Origin: an uncultured virus (IMG/VR IMGVR_UViG_3300031993_000020)
Lineage: Duplodnaviria > Heunggongvirae > Uroviricota > Caudoviricetes
Virus record (IMG/VR): IMGVR_UViG_3300031993_000020
DNA: 64,000 nt
Strand: one strand, 5' to 3'
This document shows positions 1 to 48,607 of the stretch, one piece after another. Position 1 is the stretch's first letter; each line of letters starts with the position of its first letter. The position numbers and the translations under genes were made by a program. The notes beneath the pieces are model-generated. The model saw nothing but the letters and a program-made list of their open reading frames with translations, did not search any database and was not told the origin of the DNA.

Positions 1-18
1 GGGACAACGTCCCTCTTG

Positions 19-126
19 ATGGGGTACTGTCAATTACCCCTAATGTTGGACTTTCCAATATTAATGACGTAACGAACCCTTTGAGGGTTCAGTTGCAAGC
101 CTCCGGCTTTGCCGGAGGTAGTTGAC
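19..126 (+). mobile_element. IS200/IS605-family right end / TnpB omegaRNA-like structured 3' end (element continues left of the window)
   Basis: Subterminal hairpin CAAGCCTCCGGC-TTT-GCCGGAGGTAGTTGAC (96-126). GTCAATTACC (29-38) can pair with GGTAGTTGAC (117-126). Extra hairpin GAACCCT-TTG-AGGGTTC. Read on the minus strand it also resembles an IscB/HEARO 5' end, so the strand is not certain. Confidence 0.6.
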
Positions 127-127
127 T

Positions 128-289
128 GTAGGGCCAGGAGTAGAACTTCAGATCCCCCGAGAGAGTCTGCTGGAGTACAACGAGAACCCGCAGATGTTTT
201 TGGAACACTATGTCGGTCTTGAGACTGATTCTCCTGCAAATGTAAGTAGCGGGAATTGTTCAGGATTTATAATGCAAATCAAAAATTGA
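128..289 (+). pseudogene. Probable 3' remnant of a gene interrupted by the IS end
   Basis: Open, protein-like frame VGPGVELQIPRESLLEYNENPQMFLEHY...IKN* starts right after GTTGAC, with no RBS or start of its own. Confidence 0.3.
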
Positions 290-438
290 GTCTAAGCCAT
301 TTGTGTGTAATTTTGATAAGGACATGAATGTCCCTAACAAACATTTTTCCCTTGACGAAGTAATCAAAACAGCATAAGAATATTTGGTGTGAGGATAAAC
401 CTTGCAACGAGAACTAAAGTAACGAGCCGAGTATCGAG

Positions 439-765
439 ATGCAGAAGAACACGAGAGTAATTGACGACCAAAAAGTATCAACACAAACAGCTAACATGAC
501 AAGCTGCAATATCCTGACGGTTGAGGCCGGTACTAATGGACACCAAGGTGGAGACGCCGGTCATGGGTGCCGGACTTATATTCGCATCGAAGACGAGGGT
601 GGAACGAGTATCAGAGTAAAGCCTCTCGGAAATATGTGGAACGACGAGTACGACGGCGGCGTCGAAATTATACTTGCTGGAGACTGCGAGCTCGACACGA
701 TTATCGACGGATTAAAGTTCATCACTGGGACGCTGGAAGCTCAGAAGAAAGCCCAAGCTAAGTAA
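439..765 (+). CDS. Hypothetical phage protein (108 aa)
   Basis: ORF with Gly-rich VEAGTNGHQGGDAGHG motif, ending 41 bp before cas9. No Cas2 signature. Confidence 0.65.
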   Translation: MQKNTRVIDDQKVSTQTANMTSCNILTVEAGTNGHQGGDAGHGCRTYIRIEDEGGTSIRVKPLGNMWNDEYDGGVEIILAGDCELDTIIDGLKFITGTLEAQKKAQAK

Positions 766-806
766 TAAAAACGTTACACAACCAACAACTTAACGAGGTA
801 ACTAAA

Positions 807-3800
807 ATGAACAAACAAACTTTAAAGAACGAACCGTATTACATTGGATTAGATATTGGAACCAGCTCTGTGGGTTGGTGCTGTACTGATTCTTCCTATA
901 AGTGGCTAAGATACCATGGGAAAAATATGTGCGGAGTGCATCTGTTTCCAGAAGCTAAAACGGCTGAGGACAGACGCTTACATAGAAGCAATCGACGCAG
1001 ACTACAAAGGAGAAGAAAACGGATAGAATATCTCCGTGAAATTTTTGCTGATGAAATTAATAAAGTTGAACCTCAATTTTACAGTGCATTGGACGATAGT
1101 CAGTTCAAAAAGACTAGTCTAGCTGGACTTATGAAACAATATCCGACCATTTTCCATCTTAGAAAAGCCTTAATAGAACAACCGGATATTAAATTCGACA
1201 TAAGGTATATTTACCTTGTATGTGCTAATATACTCAAGCACCGTGGAAATTTTCTATACCCCAGTCTATCAGTAGATAATGTAGTTAACGGCGCATTCGA
1301 GCAAAACTTGAATGATTTTGTGGATACTGTAAAAAATGTGTACAATATAGACATTAACAGTAAAGGACTAGATGAGATAAAAGATGCGCTTTTAAGAGGG
1401 GACTCAGAAGCTCTACAAATAGCGTTCTGGGGAAATAGCGACAAAAAAGATAAGTTGCACGAAGCTCTCTGTGCGACTGTTACAGGAAAAACTCCAAGAC
1501 TTCAGGTACTGCTCTCTAGTGCAAGATATGAAATAGACCCAGAACAGTTAGAATCAGTAAAAAAGATCAAATTAAGCGATGCAAATTTAGAGGAAAAGCT
1601 TCCAGAGTTAGAAGCGATTACTGGAGAAGTCTATGATGTATTTCTTGCGGCTAAGAGGCTCTACGATTGGAGTAAGATGGGGCAAATTATCGGTGAGCAT
1701 AAAAAATATTCAGATGCAATGATTGCAAAGTATAACGCACACAAGAAGAATCTGATACTTTTAAAACAGTTCATAAAACAGAAGGCTCCTGATAAATATG
1801 ATGAGGTGTTCAACAAGCGAGAATCTAATGATTCTTATGATGCTTGGATAGGAAGATCAGTTGCCAAACCAAATAAGAGTACTTGCGATTGGGAAGAATT
1901 TACCAAGGCCATAAAAAAAGTGCTGAATATTGGTAAAGACGAGCCACAAGACCCTGCATTGGCAAAGCTAAAGCAAGACTTGGAAAACGATGATTTTTTA
2001 GGAAAGCAGCGTACAGGTAAAAACGGGATAATTCCATACCAACTACACGAATATGAGCTGAATATCATTCTCGAGAATGCGGCCAAGCACTACCCGTTTT
2101 TAAAGCATGTAGACAGTGATGGCTACAGCAATTTAGATAAAATAAAAGCGCTTGTTACCTTTAAACGTCCATATTATGCAGGAACTGGGTTCATGACTCC
2201 TAAAAAAGGTCTTGAAAAGAAGCAGATTTATCCGTGGAATTTTTTTGATATAGTAGACTTGCCTAAAAGCGCGGAAAAATTTATTGTATCTATGACCAAG
2301 CAATGCCGTTTTATACCAACCTGCAAAGTACTACCGAAACAGTCATTGCTTTATTCGGATTATATTGCCCTTGACCATATCAATTCTTTGTCGATTTTAG
2401 GGAAGAAATTATCCTCAGGACAGAAAGCTAAAATATGGGAACTGTGTCATCAGCAGTTGGTTGTGACGTTCAGTCGTATCGCTAAAGCTATAAATATCGA
2501 CAAAAACGATCTGGGAGGCCTCGATAAAGAAGCTAGTATAAGCCTAAAATCCTACCACGATTTTAAAAGGATTTTGGGTGATAATTTGTGCGAGCACAAC
2601 AAAGACTTTATCGAAGCATGTATATATGATATTACGATTTTCAAAGAAGAAAAGGCGGAAATCTGTAAGCGTATCAAAGCTCATGCTGACGAATATAGTT
2701 TAAATCTATCTGAAGAACAGATTCAAAAGATTTCACGCCTAAACTACAAGGACTGGGGTAGCTTCTCCTGGGAACTATTTACGGAAATTAAAGACGACAA
2801 TATTTCGATTATAGAAGCCCTAACCAACGGAACTGACAATTTTATGCAACTTCTAAGTAAGAGATACAGCTACTCTAAAGCTATTGAAATATATAATCAA
2901 CAGCACGAGGTTACTAAAACAATAACAAGGGCTGACATTGTTTCATCTTTATGTGCTTCTGCTCCCGTTAAAAGAGCTGTGAAAGTTACGCTAAACATAC
3001 TTGACGACATCATCAGACGTTCAAAAGGACTGCCGAAAAAAATCTTTGTTGAGGTTCCTCGCGAGTCATCAGAGAAGAATGCGAGTAAAAAAGGTAAAAA
3101 GACAGTCTCTAGAAAAGCTAGGCTGACAAAAATATATAACATAAAAGGGAACCCTGAGTTAAAAGAACTTTACGAAGAGTTAGAGACATGTGATGAGTCA
3201 ATGTTAAAGAAAGACAAAATCTATTTGTACTTTTTGCAACTCGGTCGCGATATGTATACAGGAGAAAAGATTCATTTTGCTGCATTGAGAGATAGCAATA
3301 GTAAGTGGGACGTGGATCATATATATGCGCAGTCGAGGGTAATTGACGATAGTCTGGACAACAAAGTCTTAACCTTGAAGAGTATCAATAATGACCTTAA
3401 AAAAGACAAATGGCTGTTTGAGGTATGTCAGTCTATTAATGGTTTTGAACAGGCGCGAGAGTTATGGAACAAATTGTATAAACTTGAGTTACTGAGTTCG
3501 AAGAAAAGGGAAAAATTGTATAGGACAACGCCTCTTTCTCCGGACGAACTGGCGGAGTTTAATAGCAGACAGCTCGTGGAGACTAGACAATCTGCTAAAG
3601 CCATTTGTGATATTCTAAAGGAAATATATACTGATACAAAGGTCGAGATAGTCTATGTTAACGCTGACAGAGTGTCTGACTTTAGAACATATTTTAGCTA
3701 TGCTAAGTGTCGAGCTGTGAACGATCTACATCACGCACGAGATGCTTATCTCAATATTATTGTAGGTAATATTTGGTACACTAGGCTAACGAGCAATCCG

Positions 3801-4820
3801 GCATATGTTTTTGGCCATGAAAAAATTAATGTCCAACTTCATACGAACAACAATACGGGTCTGATAGATAAACCAGTGGCTCGAGGTGGGGTTACTGCTT
3901 GGACGTATGACTCACGACAAATCGTGGATAAATGGATGAGCTGTAATCAAATTCAGGTAACGAGGAAAATGATTGAGAGAACGGGGGAATTTTATAGTCA
4001 GAACCCCATTAAGGGTATTAAATGTAATAACAAGGTGCAAATACCAAGAAAGACCAGTGAACCACGATTAGCTGATACAAGTAAATATGGAGGATATGAT
4101 AATCAGAAAATCGCATATTTTGCTTTCATAGAATATACCAAAGAAGCAAGCCGAAGGAGGACATTTGTACCAATACCGGTCCGTCTAATCAAAAAGACTA
4201 CTCTTGACAAGTATATAAGTTCTTTAGGATATAAGGATGTCAGAGTTATCTTACCGAAGGTTTTGATTGGTACAAAAATATACATAGATGGATATCCGAC
4301 ATGGATTACAGGGAAGACAGAGGATAAATTCACAGTCGATCAGTGCGTACAGCTGATTTTAACCCAGGAGCAAGAGAGATACATCGAAAAGATTATAAGA
4401 TATTTAAAGACACAACAGAAGAATAAAAAGGAGAGCGACGATTCGCAGGAACAGACAGAAAAAGATCCGGGGATTATTGATTCTGATACACTGTACAAAT
4501 TAGTTAAGGAGCTAGTTCGCAAGTTTGCTGACGAGAATGGCATATTTAGTAAGAGACCGAATAATTTCTTTAAAGGTAAGGTTGAAACTGTGCTCAATGA
4601 ATTCAAAACGAATTCAGTTGCGAAACAATATGTTGTCGTAAAAAACATCGTACAATTTTGTCAAGGGAGCGGAATTGCTGATTTTAGTGGTATTGGTGGG
4701 AAGAAAAATGCAGGTAGTATAAGTATTAAGATGGATATTACTGATTGTAAATCCGCCTATATTCTTCTTGAATCATCAACCGGACTCGGTGTCGAAAAAA
4801 TCGATCTCCAAAAAAGATAA
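807..4820 (+). CDS. cas9: Type II (II-A-like) CRISPR endonuclease Cas9, 1337 aa
   Basis: RuvC-I IGLDIGTSSVGW (D16), Arg-rich bridge helix RRLHRSNRRRLQRRRKR, YPTIFHLR, KHRGNFL, RuvC-II IFVEVPRE, HNH DVDHIYAQS...DDSLDNKVL...N, RuvC-III HHARDAYL, KYGGY. RBS GAGG upstream; tracrRNA and array adjacent. Confidence 0.98.
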   Translation: MNKQTLKNEPYYIGLDIGTSSVGWCCTDSSYKWLRYHGKNMCGVHLFPEAKTAEDRRLHRSNRRRLQRRRKRIEYLREIFADEINKVEPQFYSALDDSQFKKTSLAGLMKQYPTIFHLRKALIEQPDIKFDIRYIYLVCANILKHRGNFLYPSLSVDNVVNGAFEQNLNDFVDTVKNVYNIDINSKGLDEIKDALLRGDSEALQIAFWGNSDKKDKLHEALCATVTGKTPRLQVLLSSARYEIDPEQLESVKKIKLSDANLEEKLPELEAITGEVYDVFLAAKRLYDWSKMGQIIGEHKKYSDAMIAKYNAHKKNLILLKQFIKQKAPDKYDEVFNKRESNDSYDAWIGRSVAKPNKSTCDWEEFTKAIKKVLNIGKDEPQDPALAKLKQDLENDDFLGKQRTGKNGIIPYQLHEYELNIILENAAKHYPFLKHVDSDGYSNLDKIKALVTFKRPYYAGTGFMTPKKGLEKKQIYPWNFFDIVDLPKSAEKFIVSMTKQCRFIPTCKVLPKQSLLYSDYIALDHINSLSILGKKLSSGQKAKIWELCHQQLVVTFSRIAKAINIDKNDLGGLDKEASISLKSYHDFKRILGDNLCEHNKDFIEACIYDITIFKEEKAEICKRIKAHADEYSLNLSEEQIQKISRLNYKDWGSFSWELFTEIKDDNISIIEALTNGTDNFMQLLSKRYSYSKAIEIYNQQHEVTKTITRADIVSSLCASAPVKRAVKVTLNILDDIIRRSKGLPKKIFVEVPRESSEKNASKKGKKTVSRKARLTKIYNIKGNPELKELYEELETCDESMLKKDKIYLYFLQLGRDMYTGEKIHFAALRDSNSKWDVDHIYAQSRVIDDSLDNKVLTLKSINNDLKKDKWLFEVCQSINGFEQARELWNKLYKLELLSSKKREKLYRTTPLSPDELAEFNSRQLVETRQSAKAICDILKEIYTDTKVEIVYVNADRVSDFRTYFSYAKCRAVNDLHHARDAYLNIIVGNIWYTRLTSNPAYVFGHEKINVQLHTNNNTGLIDKPVARGGVTAWTYDSRQIVDKWMSCNQIQVTRKMIERTGEFYSQNPIKGIKCNNKVQIPRKTSEPRLADTSKYGGYDNQKIAYFAFIEYTKEASRRRTFVPIPVRLIKKTTLDKYISSLGYKDVRVILPKVLIGTKIYIDGYPTWITGKTEDKFTVDQCVQLILTQEQERYIEKIIRYLKTQQKNKKESDDSQEQTEKDPGIIDSDTLYKLVKELVRKFADENGIFSKRPNNFFKGKVETVLNEFKTNSVAKQYVVVKNIVQFCQGSGIADFSGIGGKKNAGSISIKMDITDCKSAYILLESSTGLGVEKIDLQKR

Positions 4821-4828
4821 AAAAAGTG

Positions 4829-4857
4829 TTGACATAAAATTTTCTGTCTGCTAGACA
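4829..4857 (+). promoter_or_regulatory. Sigma70-type promoter for tracrRNA/array
   Basis: Perfect -35 TTGACA (4829-4834), 17-bp spacer, extended -10 TG-C-TAGACA (4849-4857; imperfect -10). Confidence 0.55.
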
Positions 4858-4903
4858 TTACAAATGTAAGGACGGTCAAAAGACCATCTTACGAACTTAG
4901 TTC

Positions 4904-5021
4904 TTTTTAGATCTCTGAAAAATATCACAGGTTTAAGTTCAAATAAGGCGCGTAGGCTGCTAGTAATAGCAGTCTATAGCCGACAACACGTCGCTTGTAG
5001 CGACGGAGTCACATGTGTGAC
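4904..5021 (+). ncRNA. tracrRNA
   Basis: Anti-repeat AAATATCACAGGTT-TAAG-TTCAAAT pairs with repeat GTTTGAG-AACCGTGATATTT. It is followed by an AAGGC nexus (GGC/GCC) enclosing hairpin TAGGCTGCTA-GTAA-TAGCAGTCTA, then hairpins CGTCGCT-TGT-AGCGACG and GTCACA-TG-TGTGAC. Same architecture as type II-A tracrRNAs (AAGTTAAAATAAGGC in SpyCas9). Confidence 0.88.
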
Positions 5022-5050
5022 ATAAAAGATAGATTAAGTCACAGTTCTCG

Positions 5051-5490
5051 GTTTGAGAACCGTGATATTTCTAAGGGTTCCAATACTGTCTGATAACGAA
5101 AAAGGTAAGGATCATAGTTTGAGAACCGTGATATTTCTAAGGGTTCCAATACATGTTGATCACACTAGGCACAACCTCTTCTGTTTGAGAACCGTGATAT
5201 TTCTGAGGATTTCAATACTCAAGTTTGAGAACTGTGATATTTCTGAGAGTTCAAATCCCCTTGTTTGAGAACTATGATGTTTCACTAGAGGTCCAATACT
5301 GAAAATAATATAGAGAAAAGTAACCCTAGTTTGAGAACTGTGATGTTTTTTTAGGGGTCTCATCCTCTAAATAAATCCAACTTATCATCTAGCTCTTGTT
5401 TGAGAACTGTGATGTTTGTTAGAGTTTCAACACGTGCAAACATGCCCCGTGACGAATACGCGGGTTTGAGACCTGTGCTATTCTTATCAG
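5051..5490 (+). CRISPR. CRISPR array, 36-bp repeat GTTTGAGAACCGTGATATTTCTAAGGGTTCCAATAC, 8 progressively degenerate repeats
   Basis: Repeats start at 5051, 5117, 5183, 5223, 5263, 5329, 5398 and 5464. Spacers are 30, 30, 4, 4, 29, ~33 and 30 nt. R1 and R2 are identical; later repeats diverge mainly in the 3' half. Confidence 0.95.
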
Positions 5491-5534
5491 AAAAAAAAAT
5501 ATAGCTCACCCCGGTTTCCCGAGGCGAGCTATAT
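5491..5534 (-). terminator. Intrinsic terminator facing the CRISPR array
   Basis: Minus strand ATATAGCTCGCCTCGG-GAAA-CCGGGGTGAGCTATAT then a T-run. The G-U pairs and GAAA tetraloop only work on the minus strand. Confidence 0.85.
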
Positions 5535-5556
5535 ACTTGTCATTTTAATTTTCCGA

Positions 5557-5605
5557 GTTTGAGACCTATGATGTTTTTTTAGTTTAAGACCTGAGATTTT
5601 CTCAG
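5557..5605 (+). repeat. Two truncated trailer CRISPR repeat remnants
   Basis: GTTTGAGACCTATGATGTTT (5557) and GTTTAAGACCTGAGATTTT (5582) match the 5' half of the repeat. Confidence 0.7.
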
Positions 5606-5641
5606 AAAAGAAAACCCCCTCCGGAATAAACGGAGGAGGTT
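5606..5641 (-). terminator. Intrinsic terminator of the minus-strand gene block
   Basis: Minus strand AACCTCCTCCG-TTTATTC-CGGAGGGGGTT then TTCTTTT, 5 bp after the 5647 stop. Confidence 0.85.
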
Positions 5642-5646
5642 CAATC

Positions 5647-6276
5647 TTAGCGAACTTCTTGTTCTATCCTTTTCTTCTTTAGTATGGCTTCGTAATTACC
5701 AGCCAACGCACCATTCATATCAATAACACTACAATCCTGTACGCTGTCGAAATACTTCCGTACAATACGAGAGAAATTCTTGAGCTCTGTGTCACTGGAT
5801 AACTGTGTCTGCATAGCAGCCAGCTCTTGTCTTAGTTTTTCGATTTTGGTTTCTAAAGGCGTTCTCATCCCGGGAGGGAATGAGCCTAATTTTCTGAACC
5901 ATAGGCCGTCTGGGTCAAAGCACAATATTCTAGAATTATTGAATACATCGTCACGTTCTGCTATTTTGTCATCAACAAATATAGCAGTTGTTCCTTTGGG
6001 AATAAACTGTGATTTGGGTGTGTCACCTACAGAAACAATCTCATCAAAGAAGGAAGGCTCTATCCCAGCATTAGGGAGTACCCAGTCTGGATTAGGCGCG
6101 CGAGTAAGAACAACAATCTTTTTGCCAAGAGCTTTCTGCCTTTGTAAGAATTCAAGCAAATTATTGTTTACTGCGCCATAGGCCCAGAGAACAAGAGTTG
6201 AATCCATGTCAGTGTAAATAATATCATAGCTGTCAGCGGGCAAAAGAATATCGATTATAAATATATTTTCATCCAT
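5647..6276 (-). CDS. HAD-superfamily phosphatase-like protein with C-terminal coiled coil and NF-tag module
   Basis: Motif I YTDMDSTL, motif II VLTR, Lys in PKS, motif IV FVDD. Paralogue of 22179-22697. C-terminus KNFSRIVRKYFDSVQDCSVIDMN is shared with 9011-9226. Confidence 0.7.
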   Translation of the reverse strand: MDENIFIIDILLPADSYDIIYTDMDSTLVLWAYGAVNNNLLEFLQRQKALGKKIVVLTRAPNPDWVLPNAGIEPSFFDEIVSVGDTPKSQFIPKGTTAIFVDDKIAERDDVFNNSRILCFDPDGLWFRKLGSFPPGMRTPLETKIEKLRQELAAMQTQLSSDTELKNFSRIVRKYFDSVQDCSVIDMNGALAGNYEAILKKKRIEQEVR

Positions 6277-6925
6277 CCTTTTTCACCTTATCCTTCAAGA
6301 TTGTCTCGCCTTTAACTAGCCACGCAATTCCGAAGAATTCCAAGCCAATGCCTTCTCCGATGTAAGTTGTGTAAGGAAGGTTAAAGAGAAAGTTTAGTGC
6401 GCCGCCCAGGAAGATGGAGACGATCATTCCTATGCCACAAGTCCGGTATAAAATATTGCGTTTCTTCTTTTCGTCTGTCATATTACCCGATGTTTTTGTG
6501 AATTGCCAAATTTCCATAAAAGCTAGGCCGAAGAAAAAAGCTATCGCTGTGATATTATGAATCCATTTCGTAATGCCTGCATCTATTCCCATAAAATTGT
6601 ACGCTTCTGGATAAAATTGAACTTGAGTTGGAAAAAGCGATAGGAGTAGTGCCATGATTCCGCTTACAGTTGTGATCCAGAAGTCTGCAATATCATAGCC
6701 TCTATAGCAGATTAGGAAGCAGCCAGTCGCGAAGACGATTCCCTCAAAAAGAAGTGATGATGTAGCATAGTGTGACGCGGATATAGAATCAAAAAGTAGT
6801 GGTTCTATCTCCCGACTCATCACAAATCTACAAAAAAAGTAGCCGAAGCCCACATCTAAGATAGGTAAAAGCATTCCGAGGATGCCAAGAGTCCTGCGGA
6901 GATATATTTCTGTTTTGTCTGTCAT
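6269..6925 (-). CDS. Multi-pass membrane protein (DUF998-like), paralogue 1
   Basis: About 6 hydrophobic helices, SISASHY and WIH motifs; aligns end to end with 7706-8377. Confidence 0.75.
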   Translation of the reverse strand: MTDKTEIYLRRTLGILGMLLPILDVGFGYFFCRFVMSREIEPLLFDSISASHYATSSLLFEGIVFATGCFLICYRGYDIADFWITTVSGIMALLLSLFPTQVQFYPEAYNFMGIDAGITKWIHNITAIAFFFGLAFMEIWQFTKTSGNMTDEKKKRNILYRTCGIGMIVSIFLGGALNFLFNLPYTTYIGEGIGLEFFGIAWLVKGETILKDKVKKDG

Positions 6926-6927
6926 GG

Positions 6928-7740
6928 TTATTCTTTCTTTGCAAGACCCTCGAGAAAATCTTGCTCAAAATAACGATCCATATCACCGTTGATCGTCTGG
7001 ATCACGCCATTAAGAGACAGAAAATCACGGCGGTAAGATAAATCGAGTATATCTAGTATTCCAGTTAGTTTACTTACCCAGCCTGCATGGAAACTGTCAT
7101 CCGTGATGATGTTTTCTGACTGATCTACAATAGCTGATAAAAATTGATTATAGGTATCGTCAAACTTAGTATATAGCATACAAGGGATTCCCTTATGCTT
7201 ATAAATTTTCCCGTTATATTCGATGTCTATAATCTTTGATGTTATATTATCATGGTATTTAGATTTCAGTCGATCAACAATTGATCCATCTAGAATGGCT
7301 GTCATGTCATGATTGGGGTCATCAATGATTTTTGTAACTTCGTTGCCTAGCACTTCAAGTAAAGTTTTGCTGTAGATTAGCATAAACTCACGAATAAACT
7401 GTGCTTTTATTACTGAGTGACATGTAACCTGGGGTCCTATATTAATCACTCTTTTTAAATCTCTAAAGTACATGTGGCCGAGAAGATTAGTATAAATTAC
7501 GTCGCTCTCGTCGCTTTTGTTTGACTTTGGAATAGCAATATGGTCGTTTGAATGATGGTTAGCCATTTCCAAGGCTAATTTCCCGTTTGTGATTTTGCTG
7601 ACATTTAGTGCCTTCATGATTTTTGTGAGCACGAAACCAATAGAAAAGACACTGATAACAATCATTGCTAGAATGATTGCGCCAATGCCTGCCAATTTGT
7701 CGATATCAAGAGTTAATAACTGATTCATCGCCTTCATCAC
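6928..7740 (-). CDS. Single N-terminal TM protein (possible holin-like)
   Basis: One TM segment (LAGIGAIILAMIVISVFSIGFVL) followed by a helical soluble domain; holin role is only a topology guess. Confidence 0.45.
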   Translation of the reverse strand: MMKAMNQLLTLDIDKLAGIGAIILAMIVISVFSIGFVLTKIMKALNVSKITNGKLALEMANHHSNDHIAIPKSNKSDESDVIYTNLLGHMYFRDLKRVINIGPQVTCHSVIKAQFIREFMLIYSKTLLEVLGNEVTKIIDDPNHDMTAILDGSIVDRLKSKYHDNITSKIIDIEYNGKIYKHKGIPCMLYTKFDDTYNQFLSAIVDQSENIITDDSFHAGWVSKLTGILDILDLSYRRDFLSLNGVIQTINGDMDRYFEQDFLEGLAKKE

Positions 7741-8377
7741 TATCTCTAAAGATAGTAGCTCCTTTCACTAGCCAGGCAATTCCGAAAAATTCTAAGCCTA
7801 GTCCCTCACCTGCGTATAAAAGAAAGGGAACGTGAAATAGAAAATTTATTGCTCCGGCAACCAAGATTGATACTAACATGCCTATGCCGCAGATACGGTA
7901 GATTGTGTTGCGTATTTTTTTGTTACGAGTAGGTTCTTTGTTGCCAGTTTTTGTGAATTGCCAAAGTTCCATGATGGCAAGGCCAACGAAGAATAGTATG
8001 GATGTGGTATAATGGACCCACTGTGTAATTGAGGGAGGTAAGCCAATGAAGTTGTAACCATCGAAGCCGCCTGTTGCAGTGGGAAATAGTGTTAGAAGAA
8101 TACCAAAAACACCAGTGATAGTGGTCAGCCAGAAGTCTTTTACATCGTATCCTCGGTAACAAATAAGAAAAACAGACACAGCGAGAACGATGCCCTCAAA
8201 AAACAAATAGCTATAGGAATAATGAGTGGAAGAGATCGACTCAAAAAGACTTTGATTAATATCTAATCCCATCAAATATTTGCACCAGAAATAACCGAAG
8301 CCGATGTCAACAATCGGCAATAACATACCAAGGATACCCAATGCTCTTCTTTGATAAATTTCAGTTTTGTCTGTCAT
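7706..8377 (-). CDS. Multi-pass membrane protein (DUF998-like), paralogue 2
   Basis: MTDKTEIY.RR.LGILGMLLPI and GEG.GLEFFGIAWLVKG are shared with 6269-6925. Confidence 0.75.
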   Translation of the reverse strand: MTDKTEIYQRRALGILGMLLPIVDIGFGYFWCKYLMGLDINQSLFESISSTHYSYSYLFFEGIVLAVSVFLICYRGYDVKDFWLTTITGVFGILLTLFPTATGGFDGYNFIGLPPSITQWVHYTTSILFFVGLAIMELWQFTKTGNKEPTRNKKIRNTIYRICGIGMLVSILVAGAINFLFHVPFLLYAGEGLGLEFFGIAWLVKGATIFRDSDEGDESVINS

Positions 8378-8996
8378 TGTTATTTCCTATATAAGTTAAG
8401 TTTTCTTTTCTACAGATGGTACTCATCATGGTGACAAAATCCATACCCCAGTACACTGGATCAGCCGCATCGTATTGATACAAACGAATACCTCGTTTGG
8501 CCTGCAATTCCTGTTTGCACCATACAGTATATAGATCTAATGCTCCCTTCAGGGTAGGAGAAAATTTTAGAATTCCCAAGTCTTCTTGATATTCAAAAGA
8601 CATATCACCACGAATCCAACCTGCTGCAACTTGACAAAATATTGTACAATGTGATGAAACATCTAATGGCTTACCAATGACATTAGTCACGAATGCGGCT
8701 GTAGGAATTCCTACCTGCTGGCAGTCATATGCAATCAAAGCAGCAATGGAGTCGCACATACCAACATGATATCTCTTGGTCTGAGCAGGTGACTGACAAG
8801 GGAAGTCAAATGGTACCCGATAATTTTGGCTGTCATAATAGACTTGATTAATGTATAGATTATTTTTATTCTTGATCACCTTGCCATCGTAAGTAATGCC
8901 AATTAAATATATGTGATCAATTTGCGAAAGAATCGAATGCAACTGAGCAATTTGCTTATTAGGTTCTTCATTATGTAATGGAAGATGAGCTTGCAT
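8361..8996 (-). CDS. Possible transglutaminase-like (Cys-His-Asp) protein
   Basis: GMCDSIA...SHCTIF...GWIRGD order matches a transglutaminase-like triad. Confidence 0.45.
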   Translation of the reverse strand: MQAHLPLHNEEPNKQIAQLHSILSQIDHIYLIGITYDGKVIKNKNNLYINQVYYDSQNYRVPFDFPCQSPAQTKRYHVGMCDSIAALIAYDCQQVGIPTAAFVTNVIGKPLDVSSHCTIFCQVAAGWIRGDMSFEYQEDLGILKFSPTLKGALDLYTVWCKQELQAKRGIRLYQYDAADPVYWGMDFVTMMSTICRKENLTYIGNNNDRQN

Positions 8997-9010
8997 ATTC
9001 AGTATCCTTG

Positions 9011-9226
9011 TTAAACAATCCTTTTTTGCTCTTGCTGTTCTTGCTGTTCTTTTTCTTTAGCTAGAGCTGCAATGCGTTGTTGCAGCATAAGATTCTTGCT
9101 GTGGTCTAATGCGGCATTCATATCGATAACGCTACAATCTTGAACACCATCGAAATAATGCTTCGTAATGTTGGCGAAATTCTTCAGCTGAATATTGTCG
9201 CTTTGTTGCATTTTGGCTAACCTCAC
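9011..9226 (-). CDS. Small NF-tag protein, paralogue of the C-terminal module of 5647-6276
   Basis: QLKNFANITKHYFDGVQDCSVIDMNAAL versus ELKNFSRIVRKYFDSVQDCSVIDMNGAL. Confidence 0.6.
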   Translation of the reverse strand: MRLAKMQQSDNIQLKNFANITKHYFDGVQDCSVIDMNAALDHSKNLMLQQRIAALAKEKEQQEQQEQKRIV

Positions 9227-9482
9227 AGATAAAAAATACTGGCTACCCTCTGACTGCTATGGAGGAAGCAGCCAGAGGTGTGGTTTCAAGGAGAGTTGCT
9301 GTGCCTTGACGAGAAATCTCGATACCCAAAATAGCCAGTTTTCTGCTACAGAAATTAAGACTGACTCTCGTACCCGCTAGTTTCACAACTATAACAAATA
9401 CGCATGAACAATTTAAGTGTTTTGAGGAGGATTTAAATGTTATGGCTCAATCTTCAAATTTCTGTAGCAAAATCAATTAAAA

Positions 9483-9584
9483 TCAACAATAAGTTAAAGC
9501 TAAAATTAATCCAATACCAAAAAGTGCTGCATAAACAAATGGTAATACATTATCATGTACCCATTGCTTTGTATCATCATCCAT
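9483..9584 (-). CDS. 33-aa single-TM peptide (not in the ORF track)
   Basis: MDDDTKQWVHDNVLPFVYAALFGIGLILALTYC*; ATG overlaps the upstream stop (TGATG). Confidence 0.6.
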   Translation of the reverse strand: MDDDTKQWVHDNVLPFVYAALFGIGLILALTYC

Positions 9585-10099
9585 CATGCTGCCTCTAGTT
9601 CATCAGCGGCAATAACAATGTGACCACAGGCTTGTACAGAATTAAATACCAAGATTTTGTGTTCTTTATCTTCAATACCTTCATTAATAGCATACTCTGT
9701 TATCAGTTGATCATCTTTAAAGGTAGCAATCTTTTTAAAAACACCATCAACCCAGAACTTATCACTATTATCATCATCAGTTACAATATGATAAAAGTTT
9801 TTGAACTCTTGCAGATTATTCTCATCTTTAATCCAGATATTGAGAGCGTCAATATCTTCCTGCGTAGGCAACCGATAAGAATTGAGATCACCATGGAAAT
9901 CAGGACAATTACCTAGCACTTTGAAAAAGGTTGAAGATGGTACTTCTTCGGTTTTAGTATTAACATCTGTCCAAGCATCATGTAGCCAAGCGATATTACC
10001 GACTTTTAGTGCTTCAGTATAGTATTTACAAGTTCCGTCTGCGCGTTTCTGTTTGTAGATTAGCATTAGATGCTCCTTTTTGTTATCTGTCGCTGTCAT
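9584..10099 (-). CDS. Hypothetical protein (171 aa)
   Basis: ORF with GAGG RBS, on the operon strand. Confidence 0.65.
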   Translation of the reverse strand: MTATDNKKEHLMLIYKQKRADGTCKYYTEALKVGNIAWLHDAWTDVNTKTEEVPSSTFFKVLGNCPDFHGDLNSYRLPTQEDIDALNIWIKDENNLQEFKNFYHIVTDDDNSDKFWVDGVFKKIATFKDDQLITEYAINEGIEDKEHKILVFNSVQACGHIVIAADELEAA

Positions 10100-10128
10100 G
10101 TCATGCCTGCCTCGTTCAAATATCTCTG

Positions 10129-10368: not shown

Positions 10369-10384
10369 AATAAAACCTCCTTAA

Positions 10385-12814: not shown

Positions 12815-12816
12815 TT

Positions 12817-40894: not shown

Positions 40895-41491
40895 TTAGAT
40901 CGCAGTTAAGTTTTCAAATTTCGGAGGCATCAGAATGCCTTTGAATGTAATCTGGGAATCTTCCCCGAGTGGAATTTTCTCACCACTCATCTGGTCATCA
41001 GTCTGATACCCATCAATAATGCAATGTTCCTGTACCCAAGAACGTACGGGTTGATTCAGAGAATTCAGACGATAGTATTTGTTGCGACTCCGAAGATCCC
41101 GAGCGCGGTAGCTTTTCTGTGTATAAGGGTCGCAGCATTTAAAGGACCAGTCCGTAAGCCAAACGTAAACAGTCTGGTCTTCAAAATCAGCAAGAGTGAC
41201 TTGAACATTAACATTTTTTAGAGTAATCTGACCGGGCTGTGCAGGAAGAGCAAAGCCACGAATTGTTTGATCACCAGCAATAGAATTGTGTTGAAAATTA
41301 TCACTGGTGCCGACACCGGTGATACTTTTCACGCGGCGTTTAATAAAGTCCATACCGGGGAAATAAACAGCAGCCGGAGGTTCCAGAATTTCCCAGTCCC
41401 ATTTATCCGACGTTAACAGTTCCACGGTGCCATCAATCATATTAGCGTAATTAAGATAGTTTAACATATCGTTTTCTTCTAAATTAGCCAT
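40895..41491 (-). CDS. Tail tube protein (gp19-like)
   Basis: 198 aa; PGQITL...VQVTLADFEDQTVYVWLTDW...YRLNSLNQPVRSW pattern; downstream of the sheath. Confidence 0.7.
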   Translation of the reverse strand: MANLEENDMLNYLNYANMIDGTVELLTSDKWDWEILEPPAAVYFPGMDFIKRRVKSITGVGTSDNFQHNSIAGDQTIRGFALPAQPGQITLKNVNVQVTLADFEDQTVYVWLTDWSFKCCDPYTQKSYRARDLRSRNKYYRLNSLNQPVRSWVQEHCIIDGYQTDDQMSGEKIPLGEDSQITFKGILMPPKFENLTAI

Positions 41492-43300: not shown

Positions 43301-44826
43301 AAGGCTCTGTTTGAAAATCTGATTGATAGTCAAACTTCATACTCTTTCGAGTAATAGCTAGAACCCTTAGCTTCTACTCGGTTAGACTTTTTAAAGTTAT
43401 ACCCAAGTTTCTTCGGTTGAATTACTTCAATATTTTCCCTGTATTTGATAGGGATATCGAGTTCAGAGTTAAATTTCTTCATGATCTGATAACTTCCATT
43501 TACATCTGCATTGATCGAGATACCTTGATTACTCAAAAAGAGACCTCTATACTTACGTCTCTTTTTGTTATAGTTCTCTTTTATTGGTAGTTCTTGATCT
43601 AAATACGATGTACCGGAAGTATAACTTTCTTCTACCTCAACTACACTGATTCCTAGCAACTCTGCTTTATAAGAGATCATATGTACCAGTCTATTAAAGG
43701 GAATTTCTACAAAATTTTGATTATTCTTAGAACCAAGATTACATTCTTGTTTCCAACCTACATTCTTCCCTATGATAATAGTACATATACTGTTCTCTTT
43801 AGCTTTATTGACTAAAAATCTTGATGCTTGATGAAGATAGTTATGAGTCAGATTGTTTCTCTTGAAAGTTGTCCTCAATATTCGATTTGTTGTGTCTCTC
43901 TTATTGAATGTTTTTGCAAGAGAAGCCAAATCTGAAATCCTTTTGTTGTAGTATTGGTTGATTGATTTTAAAGGTCTTCCATTAATAATAAAAGGTGATA
44001 GCTCAGTATTTGATGTTACGGTAGCGAGGTTATTGATTCCTAAGTCTATAGAGTAGTATCTTCCATTATCTTTGAATTTTGGTAAAGTATCTTTCTGATA
44101 GTTGCATCTTATCATAACACCTTCAGAACAAACTTTGAGAGATACTGACGTGATCTTATGCTTTACTCGAAGCTTAATGTCTTTGAACTTTGCAAGAGTA
44201 ACAACATCTTCGTTTTGATGGAAGGAGTCTCCAACAAAAGAAATCCAATTCCTACCCTTCTCTTTGTCTAAATATCTAGGAGTTCTTGGTTTACCTTCGA
44301 ATAATTGAGGCTCTTCTTGAAAAAGTTTAAGAGCCTCAAAGTAAGAATTCCAATTGCTACAGATTTGCTTTAAGCATTGTTGACCTACTACTGTACCTAC
44401 TATTTTAAACTCATCTGTATACTTCATATACCAAGCTAAGAAGTTATAGTTTATAACCGGATTCTTCTCTGAAGATAGCAAAGACATCTTATGATTTGGT
44501 TTTTGATTGTATTCTTCGATGGCTTTGTTGGTATCTTCAAAAAGCTTTTGTTGAAACTCATCTAAAGACTTATCTTTCTCAAGATTATACTTTATTTGAG
44601 AACATTGTCTAATAAAATACTGAGTAGCATTGTAAAGATTTTTACTTTTATACCAGTAATCATCAACAGACTTCCATAGAGAGGAAGTCTTTGATGTTTT
44701 CTTGATAAAGTGTTCTTCAACAAGATTCATCAAAGACCTCCTTTCTATAGAATATTATTCTAGATTATCTGTTTTTTTGTCAAGCGTTTGTTAAAAAAAA
44801 ACAATCATTATTTCAAACAGAGCCTT
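43301..44826 (-). mobile_element. Solo tnpB element bounded by terminal inverted repeats
   Basis: AAGGCTCTGTTTGAAA-ATC-TGATTG (43301-43325) versus the reverse complement of 44802-44826, AAGGCTCTGTTTGAAA-TAA-TGATTG: 16 bp perfect, 22/25 overall. No transposase inside. Confidence 0.7.
43330..44733 (-). CDS. tnpB: IS200/IS605-family RNA-guided nuclease TnpB (467 aa)
   Basis: SKNLYN, RuvC-I SIDLGINNL, NGRPLKSINQYYNK, IIIGKNVGWKQ, YKAELLGI, EESYTS, RuvC-III INADVNGSYQI. AGGAGG RBS. Confidence 0.93.
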   Translation of the reverse strand: MMNLVEEHFIKKTSKTSSLWKSVDDYWYKSKNLYNATQYFIRQCSQIKYNLEKDKSLDEFQQKLFEDTNKAIEEYNQKPNHKMSLLSSEKNPVINYNFLAWYMKYTDEFKIVGTVVGQQCLKQICSNWNSYFEALKLFQEEPQLFEGKPRTPRYLDKEKGRNWISFVGDSFHQNEDVVTLAKFKDIKLRVKHKITSVSLKVCSEGVMIRCNYQKDTLPKFKDNGRYYSIDLGINNLATVTSNTELSPFIINGRPLKSINQYYNKRISDLASLAKTFNKRDTTNRILRTTFKRNNLTHNYLHQASRFLVNKAKENSICTIIIGKNVGWKQECNLGSKNNQNFVEIPFNRLVHMISYKAELLGISVVEVEESYTSGTSYLDQELPIKENYNKKRRKYRGLFLSNQGISINADVNGSYQIMKKFNSELDIPIKYRENIEVIQPKKLGYNFKKSNRVEAKGSSYYSKEYEV

Positions 44827-47800
44827 CAGTAATCTGGTCCAAAGAAACAATATAATGATCAATCAGAATATAATGAATACTCGGTGTAAAGCTCGCATAC
44901 AGAGAAATTACGAGTTTGTTCTGCTCGATAACAGAAGTAGGATTATTAGAATCGTCACAAACAGCCATATACTGAGCAGGAGTATAAGCTTTACCGTTAA
45001 ATAACCGATCCTGAATCGCTTTATTCACATTCTCCTGTACTTTATCACGTAATCTCTTAGTATTTAACTCATGCAGATAATTAACAGCTAATGTCTGTAC
45101 CACGTGAATTGCAGCATTCGTCATACGAACATTCTGCTCTTCAAGCATATAGCTCTTAGCATTCTGTAACGTATAATTCTGGTTCACATAATACGGAGTA
45201 GTGATCCCGCCTTTCAGAGTACAAACACGATAGTCAAGCAGAGTCTCTCGAGCCTGTTTCTTCCAATTCTGAATCAGATTAACAGTACCAACTGTACCAT
45301 GATTCAAACCAGCAATAGGAGCAAATTCCGCAGAACCGCTTCGTGAGGCTTCAACCATCTTATTGATACATTTGTAGCTGCCGGGCATTTCTGCAGAGAA
45401 CGTACCAACAGGGATACGATCAGCAATAGCCCAAGCACGAGCTTCAAAATTATCAATTTCAGTAGCAGAGATATAATTGATAACGTCTTTGTAATTCGTA
45501 TAAGCAGGAATACTAACCGGATAAACTGCCCACAGCTTCTTAGTCAAAGCGTTAATCGCTTTAGCTAAGTTCGGAGAACAGATACCAGCGTCTGAAATAA
45601 TCTCGTATTGAATGCCATCTTCATAATCAGTAATTTTCTGAATAGCGTCGATAGCAAACTGATCGTCATACGCAGGAATAGATAACGCTTTACCAAAAGC
45701 AGGACTATTAAAGCTAGCCATCGGTTCAGCTTCAGTATTCAAAGGTACGACTTGGAAATAATCGCTCTGAACTCGAGTATACCACTGATCAATACCATAG
45801 CCATCAGTTACACCAGGAACAAACGACATTGTCCAATCTTCAGTAATAATACCGGACTTATAATTAAAGTGTAAGTCAACGATCTTAGTATCACTGTCAT
45901 AGGTGTAATTAAACCGCATTAAAGCAGTGCTACACGGGAATTTAGAAACGATAGCGAAAGTATCCGAAGGATTCTGTGTCACTACAGACGTATAAATATC
46001 CATGTGACAATTTGAGCTGCATTCACCAGCATGAACATCCAAAGAAGAATCCGTGCTAATGAATTGCCCATTATACAGATATACATCAGACATCAACAGC
46101 GCTTTTTGTAACAAGGCTAAGAATTCAGTCTCATCACAGGGACCATCAGAGAGTTTCGCAATTTTCGGAGCGATTGGAGCTTCACCAACATAGTAAAGTG
46201 TATCACCGACAGTAACCTGAATCTTATCAAATTTAACTTTCTCGTCATTGTTCTCAGCACTGATAGAATAGTAATAAGTAGGCACACCGTTACCGACATC
46301 AGCGTCAGCAATAAGCGAAATAGCCGGAGAATCTGTATTCACATCGGCGGTACTGTAAGAAGGAACAAAGAGGTCCAGACTACCATTAAAGGCAACATCA
46401 TAGACGCCGCTCGGGACATTAGTACCGGGGATCTGCTCTTCACCGCCAATATAGGCTGCACCATCTGAATTGAGAATATCTGACAAACAAGAAGTTACAA
46501 ATTCTACGGAAGTACCGCAGGACTTAACAACGGTTTTGAGATTATCATCATAGCCGAGAGCAGACAGATAGTTCACATTCTTAGCCAGATACTCATCAGA
46601 GTTAAGAAAATGGAACGTATGACCAGCAATATCAGCAGTCATGTCAATAATAGGAGTGTCAAACCCAACAAAAGTACCAGTGCCTTCTTCTGTACTCCAA
46701 CTAACTACATGATTAAAATTAGACGGAACAGCGCTTTCTTTGATTGTAGAGGTAACAGGAGCAATAAATACTTTAACAACCCCGTCTTCCTCGGTAAATT
46801 CAATAGCGGTTTTTCCGAGATGAGATACAACATAACCTTCAGTTGTTTCAACAATACTATCATTATAGTCGTCAGGCACACCGTTAGAAATATACTGATT
46901 ACTATTGCTAAGGTCGAAGTATTTGATAACTCCGCCCGGATATTTAGCGATCATCTTCGGACCATAAATATCGCCGCTGTCGTAATTATGAGAGAACCGA
47001 ACTTCGTATTCGTCTAGTTCATCAGCATCAGGATAATTACTGCCGTCAATATGGTTACCATCACCAGAATAATTAGCGACGGTAAAGATGTTCTGTTTAG
47101 CTAACGCAGAATCGATCCTATTCACTAAATGTTCAATATCCTCTCTGTCGATATAGCCGTCGTGATGATAGCGAAGAATATCATAACTGATATCGTTTTC
47201 ACCAATAGCAAAATAGTAATAAGCGTTTTTATCTAGAATAATATCGCCGACTTTAATATCTGAGATGTACGTACAGAGGATATTTTTGTTGTAATTCTGA
47301 TCTTCTAAACCGCCATTATTCATTACGCTCGCATCGAGTTTACCGCGAATACGGGAATTAGTTAAAACGCCCAGCGTACCTTTTTCGATTGGCACATTGG
47401 CATAGATCTTAATCCAGTCTTCTTCGGTAAAGTAACCGAGCTGTGCGTCAGTGTCCCCATCGCGAGTAGCCCCACCTTTACGAAGATTGACAGGAGCAAC
47501 AGATTTGACAAGCGGATTTGATGGCCCATTCTCCTGAAAATTCCATTGACCGTCATAAAACCATGATTTACTATAGAACTCTACACCACGACATTTACAG
47601 GTCGCACCCCAAATACGCGGGAAATTGTACTGTTCATTGCTGCTGTGGAGAGCCTTTGGCTGTTCCCATTCGGTAAGAGGTTCTCCAACGGTTCCCCAGT
47701 GGTTAGGATTATTATGAAAATTAATCTTAATACCAGACCCATCTTCAGACATAATGTCCACGCCCTTGAGAGAACTCAGACAGTTCTCTTTACCAAGAAC

Positions 47801-48607
47801 GCAGAGACCTTCCCAGACGGGATTCATCGGCTCGAAGTAAATAGGCGTATTGTTCGCAGTATTGCTCGGAACGTTAGCCGGAGTATTCAGAAATTCATAT
47901 GTGTTACCATTAATAGCAACTGAATCTTTAACTTTAAGACTCGCTTCGCCATCGTTGACATTTCTGAAGGACATCGTGGAGAAGGAGTTCATCTTCACTG
48001 ATTCGTCGAATTTACCAGTATTCGTAGCTGTCAACGGTACACGAGAGATAATCTGAGTATCAGAAGTCGACAGAATACCTGCTTCATTGCCGGTAGGACC
48101 ATTGCTGTCAGCTTTCTTAATCATAATATCATCGACGAGTTCAGAGAAAGAAGCTTCATGCTCTTCTCCTGGATCCTCGCTATTTACGTCACTCCAGGTA
48201 TTGCTTCCTGAAGTAATAGAATACCCAGAGCTATTATCAAGACTCAAATCGATCTTGAAATTCATATAATCGCGGATAATCTGATAATCAGCATCAAACA
48301 ACCAAGTGGTACCTTCGGAAGTCATACCTTCATGTAAAGCAGAAGGACAGGCTCTCATTAAGTACACTGGATTATTTGCTAACGTCACATACGCGAACTG
48401 AGCAGATATATGATCATTCGGCATAATCTTGCTGCTGGTCATATATTTGTCTAAGAATTCTTTTTGACTCGATACTCTAGTTTTCTCAATAGGACCTGCA
48501 GGAGTGTAAACCGGCATTACGATATTGTAGCCAGTATCCGCAGGAACCGGTAATAAACCACCACTTAAATCATAAACGTTAGATTCAACAAAAGGCTCCA
48601 AAGCCAT
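44813..48607 (-). CDS. Contractile tail sheath protein (1264 aa)
   Basis: N-term AGPIEKTRVSSQKEFLDKY. C-term APIAGLNHG...QNVRM...YLHELNT...VCDDSNNPTSVIEQNKLVISLYASFTPSIHYI, typical of the sheath C-domain. Confidence 0.9.
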   Translation of the reverse strand: MALEPFVESNVYDLSGGLLPVPADTGYNIVMPVYTPAGPIEKTRVSSQKEFLDKYMTSSKIMPNDHISAQFAYVTLANNPVYLMRACPSALHEGMTSEGTTWLFDADYQIIRDYMNFKIDLSLDNSSGYSITSGSNTWSDVNSEDPGEEHEASFSELVDDIMIKKADSNGPTGNEAGILSTSDTQIISRVPLTATNTGKFDESVKMNSFSTMSFRNVNDGEASLKVKDSVAINGNTYEFLNTPANVPSNTANNTPIYFEPMNPVWEGLCVLGKENCLSSLKGVDIMSEDGSGIKINFHNNPNHWGTVGEPLTEWEQPKALHSSNEQYNFPRIWGATCKCRGVEFYSKSWFYDGQWNFQENGPSNPLVKSVAPVNLRKGGATRDGDTDAQLGYFTEEDWIKIYANVPIEKGTLGVLTNSRIRGKLDASVMNNGGLEDQNYNKNILCTYISDIKVGDIILDKNAYYYFAIGENDISYDILRYHHDGYIDREDIEHLVNRIDSALAKQNIFTVANYSGDGNHIDGSNYPDADELDEYEVRFSHNYDSGDIYGPKMIAKYPGGVIKYFDLSNSNQYISNGVPDDYNDSIVETTEGYVVSHLGKTAIEFTEEDGVVKVFIAPVTSTIKESAVPSNFNHVVSWSTEEGTGTFVGFDTPIIDMTADIAGHTFHFLNSDEYLAKNVNYLSALGYDDNLKTVVKSCGTSVEFVTSCLSDILNSDGAAYIGGEEQIPGTNVPSGVYDVAFNGSLDLFVPSYSTADVNTDSPAISLIADADVGNGVPTYYYSISAENNDEKVKFDKIQVTVGDTLYYVGEAPIAPKIAKLSDGPCDETEFLALLQKALLMSDVYLYNGQFISTDSSLDVHAGECSSNCHMDIYTSVVTQNPSDTFAIVSKFPCSTALMRFNYTYDSDTKIVDLHFNYKSGIITEDWTMSFVPGVTDGYGIDQWYTRVQSDYFQVVPLNTEAEPMASFNSPAFGKALSIPAYDDQFAIDAIQKITDYEDGIQYEIISDAGICSPNLAKAINALTKKLWAVYPVSIPAYTNYKDVINYISATEIDNFEARAWAIADRIPVGTFSAEMPGSYKCINKMVEASRSGSAEFAPIAGLNHGTVGTVNLIQNWKKQARETLLDYRVCTLKGGITTPYYVNQNYTLQNAKSYMLEEQNVRMTNAAIHVVQTLAVNYLHELNTKRLRDKVQENVNKAIQDRLFNGKAYTPAQYMAVCDDSNNPTSVIEQNKLVISLYASFTPSIHYILIDHYIVSLDQITEGSV

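Follow-up and report, generated by a model that had tools for sequence, protein, structure and literature searches.

A probable minimal type II CRISPR-Cas locus, cas9 with a tracrRNA and a short array, on a large contractile-tailed phage from the bovine gut

The DNA analysed here, referred to as the window, is a 64,000-nt stretch of an uncultured virus, IMG/VR record IMGVR_UViG_3300031993_000020. Near its left end it carries a gene for the nuclease Cas9, a predicted trans-activating CRISPR RNA (tracrRNA) and a CRISPR array (CRISPR: short palindromic repeats, clustered and regularly interspaced). A sequence-only reading had described positions 807..5641 as a phage-encoded minimal Cas9 system without genes for spacer acquisition. 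The parts of the locus are the following.

807..4820, plus strand: cas9, a single open frame of 4014 nt encoding 1337 amino acids (aa)
4909..5021, plus strand: predicted tracrRNA, the anti-repeat at 4909-4945 followed by three stem-loops (from pairing and folding)
5051..5433, plus strand: CRISPR array proper, repeats R1-R7 of 36 nt (from repeat detection)
5087-5116 (S1), 5153-5182 (S2), about 5299-5328 (S3), about 5365-5397 (S4) and 5434-5463 (S5), plus strand: spacers
5434..5617, plus strand: spacer S5 (5434-5463) and decayed repeat remnants at 5464, 5557 and 5582

Profile searches have been employed for the characterization of the effector. The 1337-aa protein matches the Pfam models Cas9_REC (3.5e-103), Cas9_PI (5.1e-42), HNH_4 (7.3e-15), Cas9_RuvC (2.5e-13) and the bridge helix (2e-11), and scores 757 bits with the NCBIfam model TIGR01865 (cas_Csn1), whose cut-off is 100. 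In an alignment of 11 sequences, the window Cas9 and ten relatives, the residues D16, E749, D835/D837/H838, N861, H975/H976 and D979 occupy invariant columns, which we take to be the counterparts of D10, E762, H840, N863, H983 and D986 in the RuvC and HNH domains of SpCas9. The Pfam and NCBIfam matches and the catalytic columns together give the split RuvC with inserted HNH that defines a type II effector. The protein is full length and looks catalytically competent, and the earlier claim of a Cas9 with all its RuvC and HNH motifs found support in profiles and alignment alike.

The solved structure nearest to the window Cas9 is that of FrCas9 (9jwk_A, E = 1.1e-172), which covers residues 5-1327. 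SpCas9 chains reach about 1e-106 and are limited to residues 9-1006, and the short Cas9s of II-C type in the Protein Data Bank (PDB) reach about 1e-17 over residues 493-985 only. Subtype II-C is marked by a short Cas9 and a cas9-cas1-cas2 locus without a fourth gene, which does not describe a protein of 1337 aa, and the csn2, cas1 and cas2 genes that mark a II-A locus were not found within the window. By these comparisons the protein itself belongs to a II-A-like lineage. FrCas9, a type II-A enzyme of Faecalibaculum rodentium (9JWK/9JWN; available part of PMC12926199), resembles it over the full length, including the domain that interacts with the protospacer-adjacent motif (PAM); it differs in being a bacterial enzyme and in being distant by sequence. 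Among the six named PAM-contact residues of FrCas9, N1137 and T1214 align with identical residues of the window Cas9, while R1213, Y1198, K1321 and Q1334 are replaced by K, G, S and N, respectively (reported alignment accuracy 0.78), and the phosphate-lock residues D1101-S1102-V1103 by S-Q-N. Because the contact residues diverge, the NRTA PAM of FrCas9 is not transferable to the window Cas9.

The array begins at 5051, 231 nt past the cas9 stop codon, with a 36-nt repeat that reads GTTTGAGAACCGTGATATTTCTAAGGGTTCCAATAC. Seven repeats, starting at 5051, 5117, 5183, 5223, 5263, 5329 and 5398, and three remnants thus adjoin the effector gene, as in type II loci. They are separated by five spacers of 29-32 nt and by two 4-nt stubs, TCAA and CCTT, at 5219-5222 and 5259-5262 (the R3/R4 and R4/R5 junctions), which make 40-nt units. 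A tracrRNA and an array with five long spacers right behind cas9 had already been noticed from the letters and are borne out; the stubs had gone unmentioned. R1 and R2 are identical, and R3, R4 and R7 differ from R1 at 3, 5 and 7 positions, respectively. The 5′ 22 nt of the repeat, which form the guide, do not vary among R1-R3, and R4-R7 show one to three changes there. The array decays with distance from cas9, which fits a 'young' end proximal to cas9. With a distance of about 30 nt between the tracrRNA and the first repeat, an ordinary leader is absent. Where position 11 of a repeat is T, the sequence reads TGTGATATT and is similar to an extended -10 box (5223-5300), and R5 includes TATGAT, flagged by a promoter scan (5250-5278). 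Promoters inside the repeats are known from type II-C arrays.

Pairing of the anti-repeat (4909-4945, plus strand) with repeat positions 1-31 has an energy of -23.4 kcal/mol; the duplex has a bulge of 4 nt on the anti-repeat strand and one mismatch opposite repeat position 11. None of 500 shuffled anti-repeats paired as well (mean -8.8). The fold of 4905-5035 has an energy of -45.8 kcal/mol; shuffles give -25.5 ± 3.4 (z = -6.0), and none of 200 folds as well. A putative tracrRNA whose anti-repeat is complementary to the repeat, the further hallmark of type II, is thus present. Other 37-nt stretches of the window pair with the repeat down to -27.4 kcal/mol, and since the anti-repeat is not unique by energy the tracrRNA call rests on position, strand and register together with the three hairpins. 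The best partner of the anti-repeat is the older repeat R6 (5329-5364), with -29.3 kcal/mol and 29 pairs against -23.4 kcal/mol for R1 and R2. R4, R6 and R7 each pair with it more strongly than R1, and at repeat position 11 the anti-repeat offers an A, which suits the T found there in R4-R7 and not the C of R1-R3. Drift or copying of the first repeats after the tracrRNA had become fixed may account for this. The Rfam tracrRNA model gave no match to the window and nothing in Rfam reached its gathering score, the sole hit at E up to 1 being a chance small nucleolar RNA inside cas9; a tRNA search found none.

Canonical II-A loci of the S. pyogenes type share with this one the Cas9 architecture, 36-nt repeats starting with GTTT, spacers of 30 nt and a tracrRNA in which three stem-loops accompany a bulged repeat:anti-repeat duplex. 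In those loci cas1, cas2 and csn2 lie between cas9 and the array, whereas in the window this interval is without them and holds the tracrRNA, on the same strand. Among the 52 open reading frames (ORFs) of at least 100 aa in the window none matches Cas1, Cas2 or Csn2 in Pfam, and an NCBIfam scan of another 14 ORFs around the locus, small ones included, gave no match to an adaptation gene. Tabulated ORFs, 54 in number, take up about 95% of the window; seven gaps between them are longer than 150 nt, the largest being the tracrRNA/array gap. Cas1, Cas2 and Cas4 of a related horse-gut contig (C139, see below) gave chance hits only by tblastn against the window (E of 1.8 or more). The stretch so covered runs 59 kb to the right and 806 bp to the left of cas9, within 64 kb of a 198,555-bp contig. 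The absence of cas1, cas2 and csn2 from the window, as first read, held in the profile searches and the gap check. For the 64 kb seen, the gene content is that of an interference-only locus, and we infer that adaptation genes are probably missing from the rest of the genome as well.

The linkage of the locus to phage genes was examined in three public bovine-gut runs, X1, which is possibly the source of the window, and X2 and X3, which represent one sample of another study; k=31 contigs were used. The features that flank the locus are listed here.

1..130, plus strand: hairpin-rich stretch at the left edge (from the sequence)
439..765, plus strand: ORF108, a small protein with function unassigned, 42 nt upstream of cas9 on the same strand
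5499..5534: two-way terminator-like site, a 16-bp hairpin with an A-run and a T-run on its sides, within the decayed array end
5612..5642, minus strand: terminator-like hairpin past the last minus-strand phage gene
5647..6276, minus strand: first phage gene beside the array, 209 aa, function unassigned (tblastn to C139 162373-162756, 40%, 5e-24)

One X1 contig covers 98-5080, with ORF108, cas9, the tracrRNA and the first 30 nt of R1, and another covers 5123-11869 and holds R2, the rest of the array with its decayed end and six phage genes; both match the window without a difference. The second contig bridges the junction at 5600-5700, a place which the sequence-only reading had singled out for a coverage check, in what is a possible source run. 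No X2 or X3 piece spanning 5600-5700 is among the matches listed; contigs of X2 and X3, from the other study's sample, lie on cas9 without listed difference. The depth of the cas9 piece in X1 is 10.1, compared with 12.8 and 11.2 for the phage-gene pieces; the corresponding ranges are 4.9-6.0 and 3.9-5.5 in X2 and 3.3-4.2 and 3.8-4.9 in X3. A host gene and a phage would not be expected to match in depth so well in two samples, and the join is thereby supported. The GC content of cas9 (0.375) is inside the range of the other window genes, and its codon usage ranks third closest to the pooled window genes among 27 long genes.

The k=31 graph branches at the left edge, at the 30-mer 97-126: three X1 contigs share 97-126/127 and then diverge (depths 10.1, 10.1 and 8.8). 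This 30-mer occurs once in the window and is absent from C139. A short element with further copies in the phage genome is the probable explanation, and the assembled contig possibly starts here. A 40-nt pattern taken from the left end of the window had no exact match in the metagenome_contigs and genome_contigs collections. A contig of X2/X3 tracks the window to 5318, inside S3, beyond which its sequence is a different one; at its far end the array seems to vary from sample to sample.

A contig of 198,555 bp is on record for each of three window proteins, the sheath protein, ORF108 and Cas9. Apart from the side of cas9 and ORF108, nearly all window genes are on the minus strand and without library matches, and a PHROG match at 1e-5 was obtained for 6 of 51 ORFs. 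The genes of most use for the identity of the replicon are these.

40895..41491, minus strand: tail tube protein, 198 aa (from family profile and structure matches)
43330..44733, minus strand: TnpB (IS605 OrfB), between the sheath gene and the next gene (Pfam OrfB_IS605 3.3e-18, Cas12f1-like_TNB 1.4e-10)
44813..48607, minus strand: tail sheath protein, 1264 aa (phrog_23 'tail sheath', 4.1e-12, residues 1099-1252)

The 1264-aa sheath leads by tblastn to gp18-type (T4-type) sheaths in 51 Vibrio phage records (1e-4). The tail tube has 66 homologues, and of the 64 aligned 22 match phrog_45 'tail tube' and 7 match phrog_4542. Its structure model has a predicted local distance difference test (pLDDT) score of 90.1, and 33 Foldseek matches have an E of at most 1e-3, the top ones being tail tubes from a Klebsiella phage (9ev2_T1, 2.9e-7), T4 and phiKZ. 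Sheath and tube genes, which mark the contractile tail of the myovirus morphotype, are thus both present. The locus had been said to abut a myovirus structural block; sheath and tube do lie in the window, but at 40.9-48.6 kb, and the genes which adjoin the array, from 5647 to 14075, are without known function. No large terminase, portal or HK97-fold capsid was recognised in the window, nor a capsid or portal in the syntenic relative C139, which has a large terminase (phrog_2, 3.6e-7). The sheath, as single query or alignment, found no relative in IMG/VR. For a 403-aa protein upstream of the sheath, weak ESM Atlas leads (tail-terminator, gp15-like; scores below 0.8, TM-score below 0.5) were not used as evidence.

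That relative (G001:C139, JAKSLB010000004.1; 203,429 bp) belongs to a metagenome-assembled genome (MAG) from horse faeces labelled Paludibacteraceae and is the one relative which the sheath alignment recovered among species-representative genomes. It holds homologues of 31 of the 54 window ORFs, with 27-79% amino-acid identity, and its gene order is that of the window from 27.9 kb to 58.4 kb and is rearranged nearer the array; the genes beside the array (5647-8996) are among those with C139 homologues. No typical cellular housekeeping gene was seen in the 88 C139 ORFs scanned outside the shared block. Pfam identified pieces of RNA polymerase beta and beta′ (2.3e-24; phrog_3295 9.4e-28), and NrdD/NrdG, nucleotide kinases, dCMP deaminase, PolA pieces with inteins and RNA ligase are present as well; PHROGs added a DnaB-like helicase, topoisomerase II, a sigma-like factor and four homing endonucleases (phrog_3339). 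From their gene content we read the window and C139 as genomes of one family of large contractile-tailed phages. Sheath, tube, C139 synteny and the C139 terminase speak for a viral contig, which had been another point to confirm, and a contractile-tailed bovine-gut phage of about 200 kb is the replicon that these genes support. With respect to the 200 kb which define a jumbo phage, the recorded contig, which may be incomplete, has 198,555 bp, and the relative at least 203 + 15 kb. A Shine-Dalgarno 5-mer precedes 24 of 54 window ORFs, which together with the Clostridia-type names of the nearest bacterial Cas9s gives a hint of a Bacillota host; contrary to this hint, C139 is binned with a Bacteroidota MAG.

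C139 carries a complete type I-C system with Cas3, Csd1, Cas7, Cas5d, Cas4, Cas1 (7.3e-102) and Cas2 (1.6e-24) at L003 1-9439. The contig starts within an array of 20 copies of a 33-nt repeat, with the cas genes behind it. Three more exact copies end a 15-kb contig of the same MAG (G001:C149, L023 14769-14997), so that the array comprises at least 23 identical repeats over both contigs; C149 has 21 ORFs on one strand, nearly all without assignment. No Cas9 was found in the horse MAG with the window Cas9 as query, and 19 spacers of the C139 array gave no match in the window or C139. C139 therefore resembles the window in phage family and in bearing CRISPR-Cas, and differs in having a complete type I-C system and no Cas9 found.

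The relatives of the Cas9 were sought among 8000 candidates sharing the most words with it, the scoring of which gave 909 hits. The best of these, with 37-41% identity by BLASTP, are unnamed metagenome proteins, and identity is at most about 43% to any protein found. Named hits come from MAGs of Ruminococcaceae, Peptostreptococcaceae, Lachnospiraceae and other Firmicutes (32-35%), and the best match in INPHARED has 32%. A Cas9 phylogeny, also called for from the outset, was computed with FastTree for 122 sequences and places the window Cas9 (P0001) with three uncultured lineages (P0002/P0156, P0003 and P0004; support 1.0), of which P0156 lies on a contig of 203,912 bp. The sister of the P0001-P0004 group is a protein from a Ruminococcaceae MAG (support 0.986), and the branch of the window Cas9 itself measures ~1.0 substitutions/site.

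As single query the Cas9 found no relative in IMG/VR; a Cas9 alignment found 9 loci there, with 30-39% identity. In the JGI metagenomes the alignment of the Cas9 clade gave 232 stretches by pattern, of which none was confirmed. The nine IMG/VR loci mostly resemble prophage-host borders (integrase, Mu transposase, two-component regulators), and in the 107 of their 128 flank ORFs that were scanned (the furthest 21 from the match were left out) neither Cas1 nor Cas2 was found, and one Csn2 fragment was (L017). The sole locus resembling a true phage accessory region is L016, on a 103-kb contig (9995-14053), where a 1352-aa Cas9 relative with 30% identity has SIR2, HipA-like and Tad8 (anti-Thoeris) neighbours and no Cas1 or Cas2 within ~9 kb upstream or 6 kb downstream; it is possibly another true phage-borne Cas9.

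Taken together, the window probably holds a type II CRISPR-Cas locus that is intact, belongs to the SpCas9/FrCas9 lineage and has been reduced to cas9, tracrRNA and a short array, in a contractile-tailed bovine-gut phage of ~200 kb. Its expression, processing and targets we infer as follows. An infecting phage would make Cas9, tracrRNA and the precursor of the CRISPR RNAs, the anti-repeat would pair with each repeat in its 5′ part, and the duplex would be cut by host RNase III. Cas9 would then cleave DNA that matches one of four or five usable spacers next to a PAM. The likeliest targets would be competing phages or further mobile elements sharing the host, and host genes would be less likely ones. 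Such a locus could not take up spacers on its own, and the decayed far end and the two spacer-less junctions would fit a slow turnover.

Phage-borne CRISPR-Cas has precedents. Vibrio phage ICP1 reportedly uses a type I-F system, with adaptation genes of its own, as a weapon against a host-borne anti-phage island; it is alike in that the system is phage-encoded and differs in being of Class 1 and in having those adaptation genes. The rarity first ascribed to phage-borne Cas9 was overstated. In the available part of Al-Shayeb et al. 2020 (PMC7162821), huge phages are described as carrying most CRISPR-Cas types, 'including Cas9-based type II', with catalytic residues retained in most phage effector nucleases and with nearly all phage systems lacking Cas1, Cas2 and Cas4; phages with arrays and no effector are described there as well. 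The point on acquisition genes is repeated in the corresponding part of a 2026 jumbo-phage survey (PMC13037316). Measured against that portion of PMC7162821, the present locus is similar in having its Cas9 on a gut-phage genome of ~200 kb or more, with catalytic residues kept, no Cas1, Cas2 or Cas4 adjacent and a compact array. It differs, as far as the IMG/VR searches reach, in belonging to a separate phage lineage, no sheath or Cas9 relative above 39% identity having been found there. The C139 system, with adaptation genes of its own, is an exception by the same account (PMC7162821, part available).

Several observations weigh against an intact and working locus. No protospacer was found for the spacers in INPHARED phages, PLSDB plasmids, the window (at up to 6 mismatches), or C139 and the fetched IMG/VR loci (at up to 7), a search that stopped short of the whole of IMG/VR and of metagenomes. 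The region 5040-5640 gave chance-level matches only in INPHARED and PLSDB (E of 2 or more), and the repeat motif was not found in IMG/VR. The spacer search, from which targets and PAM had been hoped for, thus came back without a match, and since no protospacer was found neither the target class nor the PAM is derivable. No U-tract terminator was seen after the tracrRNA and no sigma-70-like promoter in front of it; the phage family has RNA polymerase subunits of its own, so ordinary promoter and terminator scans may not apply. Moreover, 3 of 10 repeat copies are remnants and two repeat junctions contain just 4 nt. The one break of the k=31 contigs falls between the identical R1 and R2 (5081-5122), where k=31 would lead one to expect it, and X1 is possibly the source sample; the join of cas9 and array therefore rests on the original assembly and the depth match. 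Finally, 806 bp only lie left of cas9 and ~134 kb lie beyond the window, and the related phage has Cas1, Cas2 and Cas4.

Three other explanations were weighed. It is unlikely that the locus is a decaying relic, taken from a Clostridia-type host, unused and eroding. The progressive degeneration of the repeats, the two spacer-less junctions, the terminator hairpins of the neighbouring operon within the array end and the want of a spacer match or of a clear promoter or terminator would all suit a relic, yet the 4014-nt frame is open with all catalytic residues and the tracrRNA fold is intact. Likewise the 5′ 22 nt of R1-R3 are unchanged, R4, R6 and R7 pair better than R1, the cas9 contigs of the other study show no listed difference and the codon usage is phage-adapted. 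We also consider it improbable that the locus is split, with cas1 and cas2 (with or without csn2) elsewhere in the ~200-kb genome and the system able to adapt: the 59 kb to the right hold no such gene and the decayed array argues against active acquisition, although the window covers just 64 of 198.5 kb, with 806 bp left of cas9, and C139 has its Cas1, Cas2 and Cas4 with type I-C. Very improbable is an assembly chimera in which a phage with an orphan array received, by way of the identical repeat, a bacterial piece made up of cas9, tracrRNA and repeat. In its favour, two graph ambiguities (97-126 and R1/R2) delimit the cas9 piece (98-5080), cas9 may sit at the very start of the contig and effector-less phage arrays are known (PMC7162821, same part). 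Against it, cas9 and phage genes agree in depth in three runs from two samples and agree in codon usage and GC as well, cas9, tracrRNA and R1 are on one unambiguous contig with no cas1, cas2 or csn2 between them, which is not the usual bacterial II-A order, and S1 is unique in the window, so that reads of at least 100 nt would resolve R1-S1-R2.

The reading of an intact, reduced locus makes this a well-documented phage-borne Cas9 with mapped guide parts, in a phage family almost without annotated relatives. Two members of that family have CRISPR systems of different classes, which bears on how phages acquire and swap weapons, and the contrast with the type I-C relative is the most interesting side of the finding. 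The protein is a distant Cas9 orthologue, and its guide scaffold is fully predictable; many such orthologues exist and the practical value is modest until activity is shown. As a tentative and rather doubtful extension, the P0001 clade might live on large phages, with PAM and guide rules of its own that suit phage use, and CRISPR-Cas might be an exchangeable cassette in one ~200-kb herbivore-gut lineage, whose bovine member has the stripped-down Cas9 system and whose horse member has the adaptation-competent type I-C system.

ORF108, upstream of cas9, has no match in Pfam, PHROGs or NCBIfam. Its family counts 19 members including itself, the 18 homologues having 40-58% identity and no functional name, and conserves the motifs GTNGxxGGDxGHGCRTY and LGGDCEL. 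The AlphaFold2 model (pLDDT 88.8) has no convincing match in the PDB (best Foldseek E 0.48; best VIA-align Z 4.8).

Two pairs of paralogues were observed in the window: 6269-6925 and 7706-8377 both match one C139 gene (56% and 69%), and 5647-6276 and 22179-22697 both match another single C139 gene. The genes which flank TnpB in the window are adjacent in C139, so TnpB is a recent insertion. C139 has its own TnpB elsewhere (L013 1810-3399) and is heavily colonised by selfish elements. Its phrog_3339 homing endonucleases are four near-full-length copies with E about 1e-110 (L005 3197-4828, L005 17725-19362, L008 11591-15244), and intein signatures occur in several of its large proteins, including the PHROGs-matched DNA helicase and topoisomerase II.

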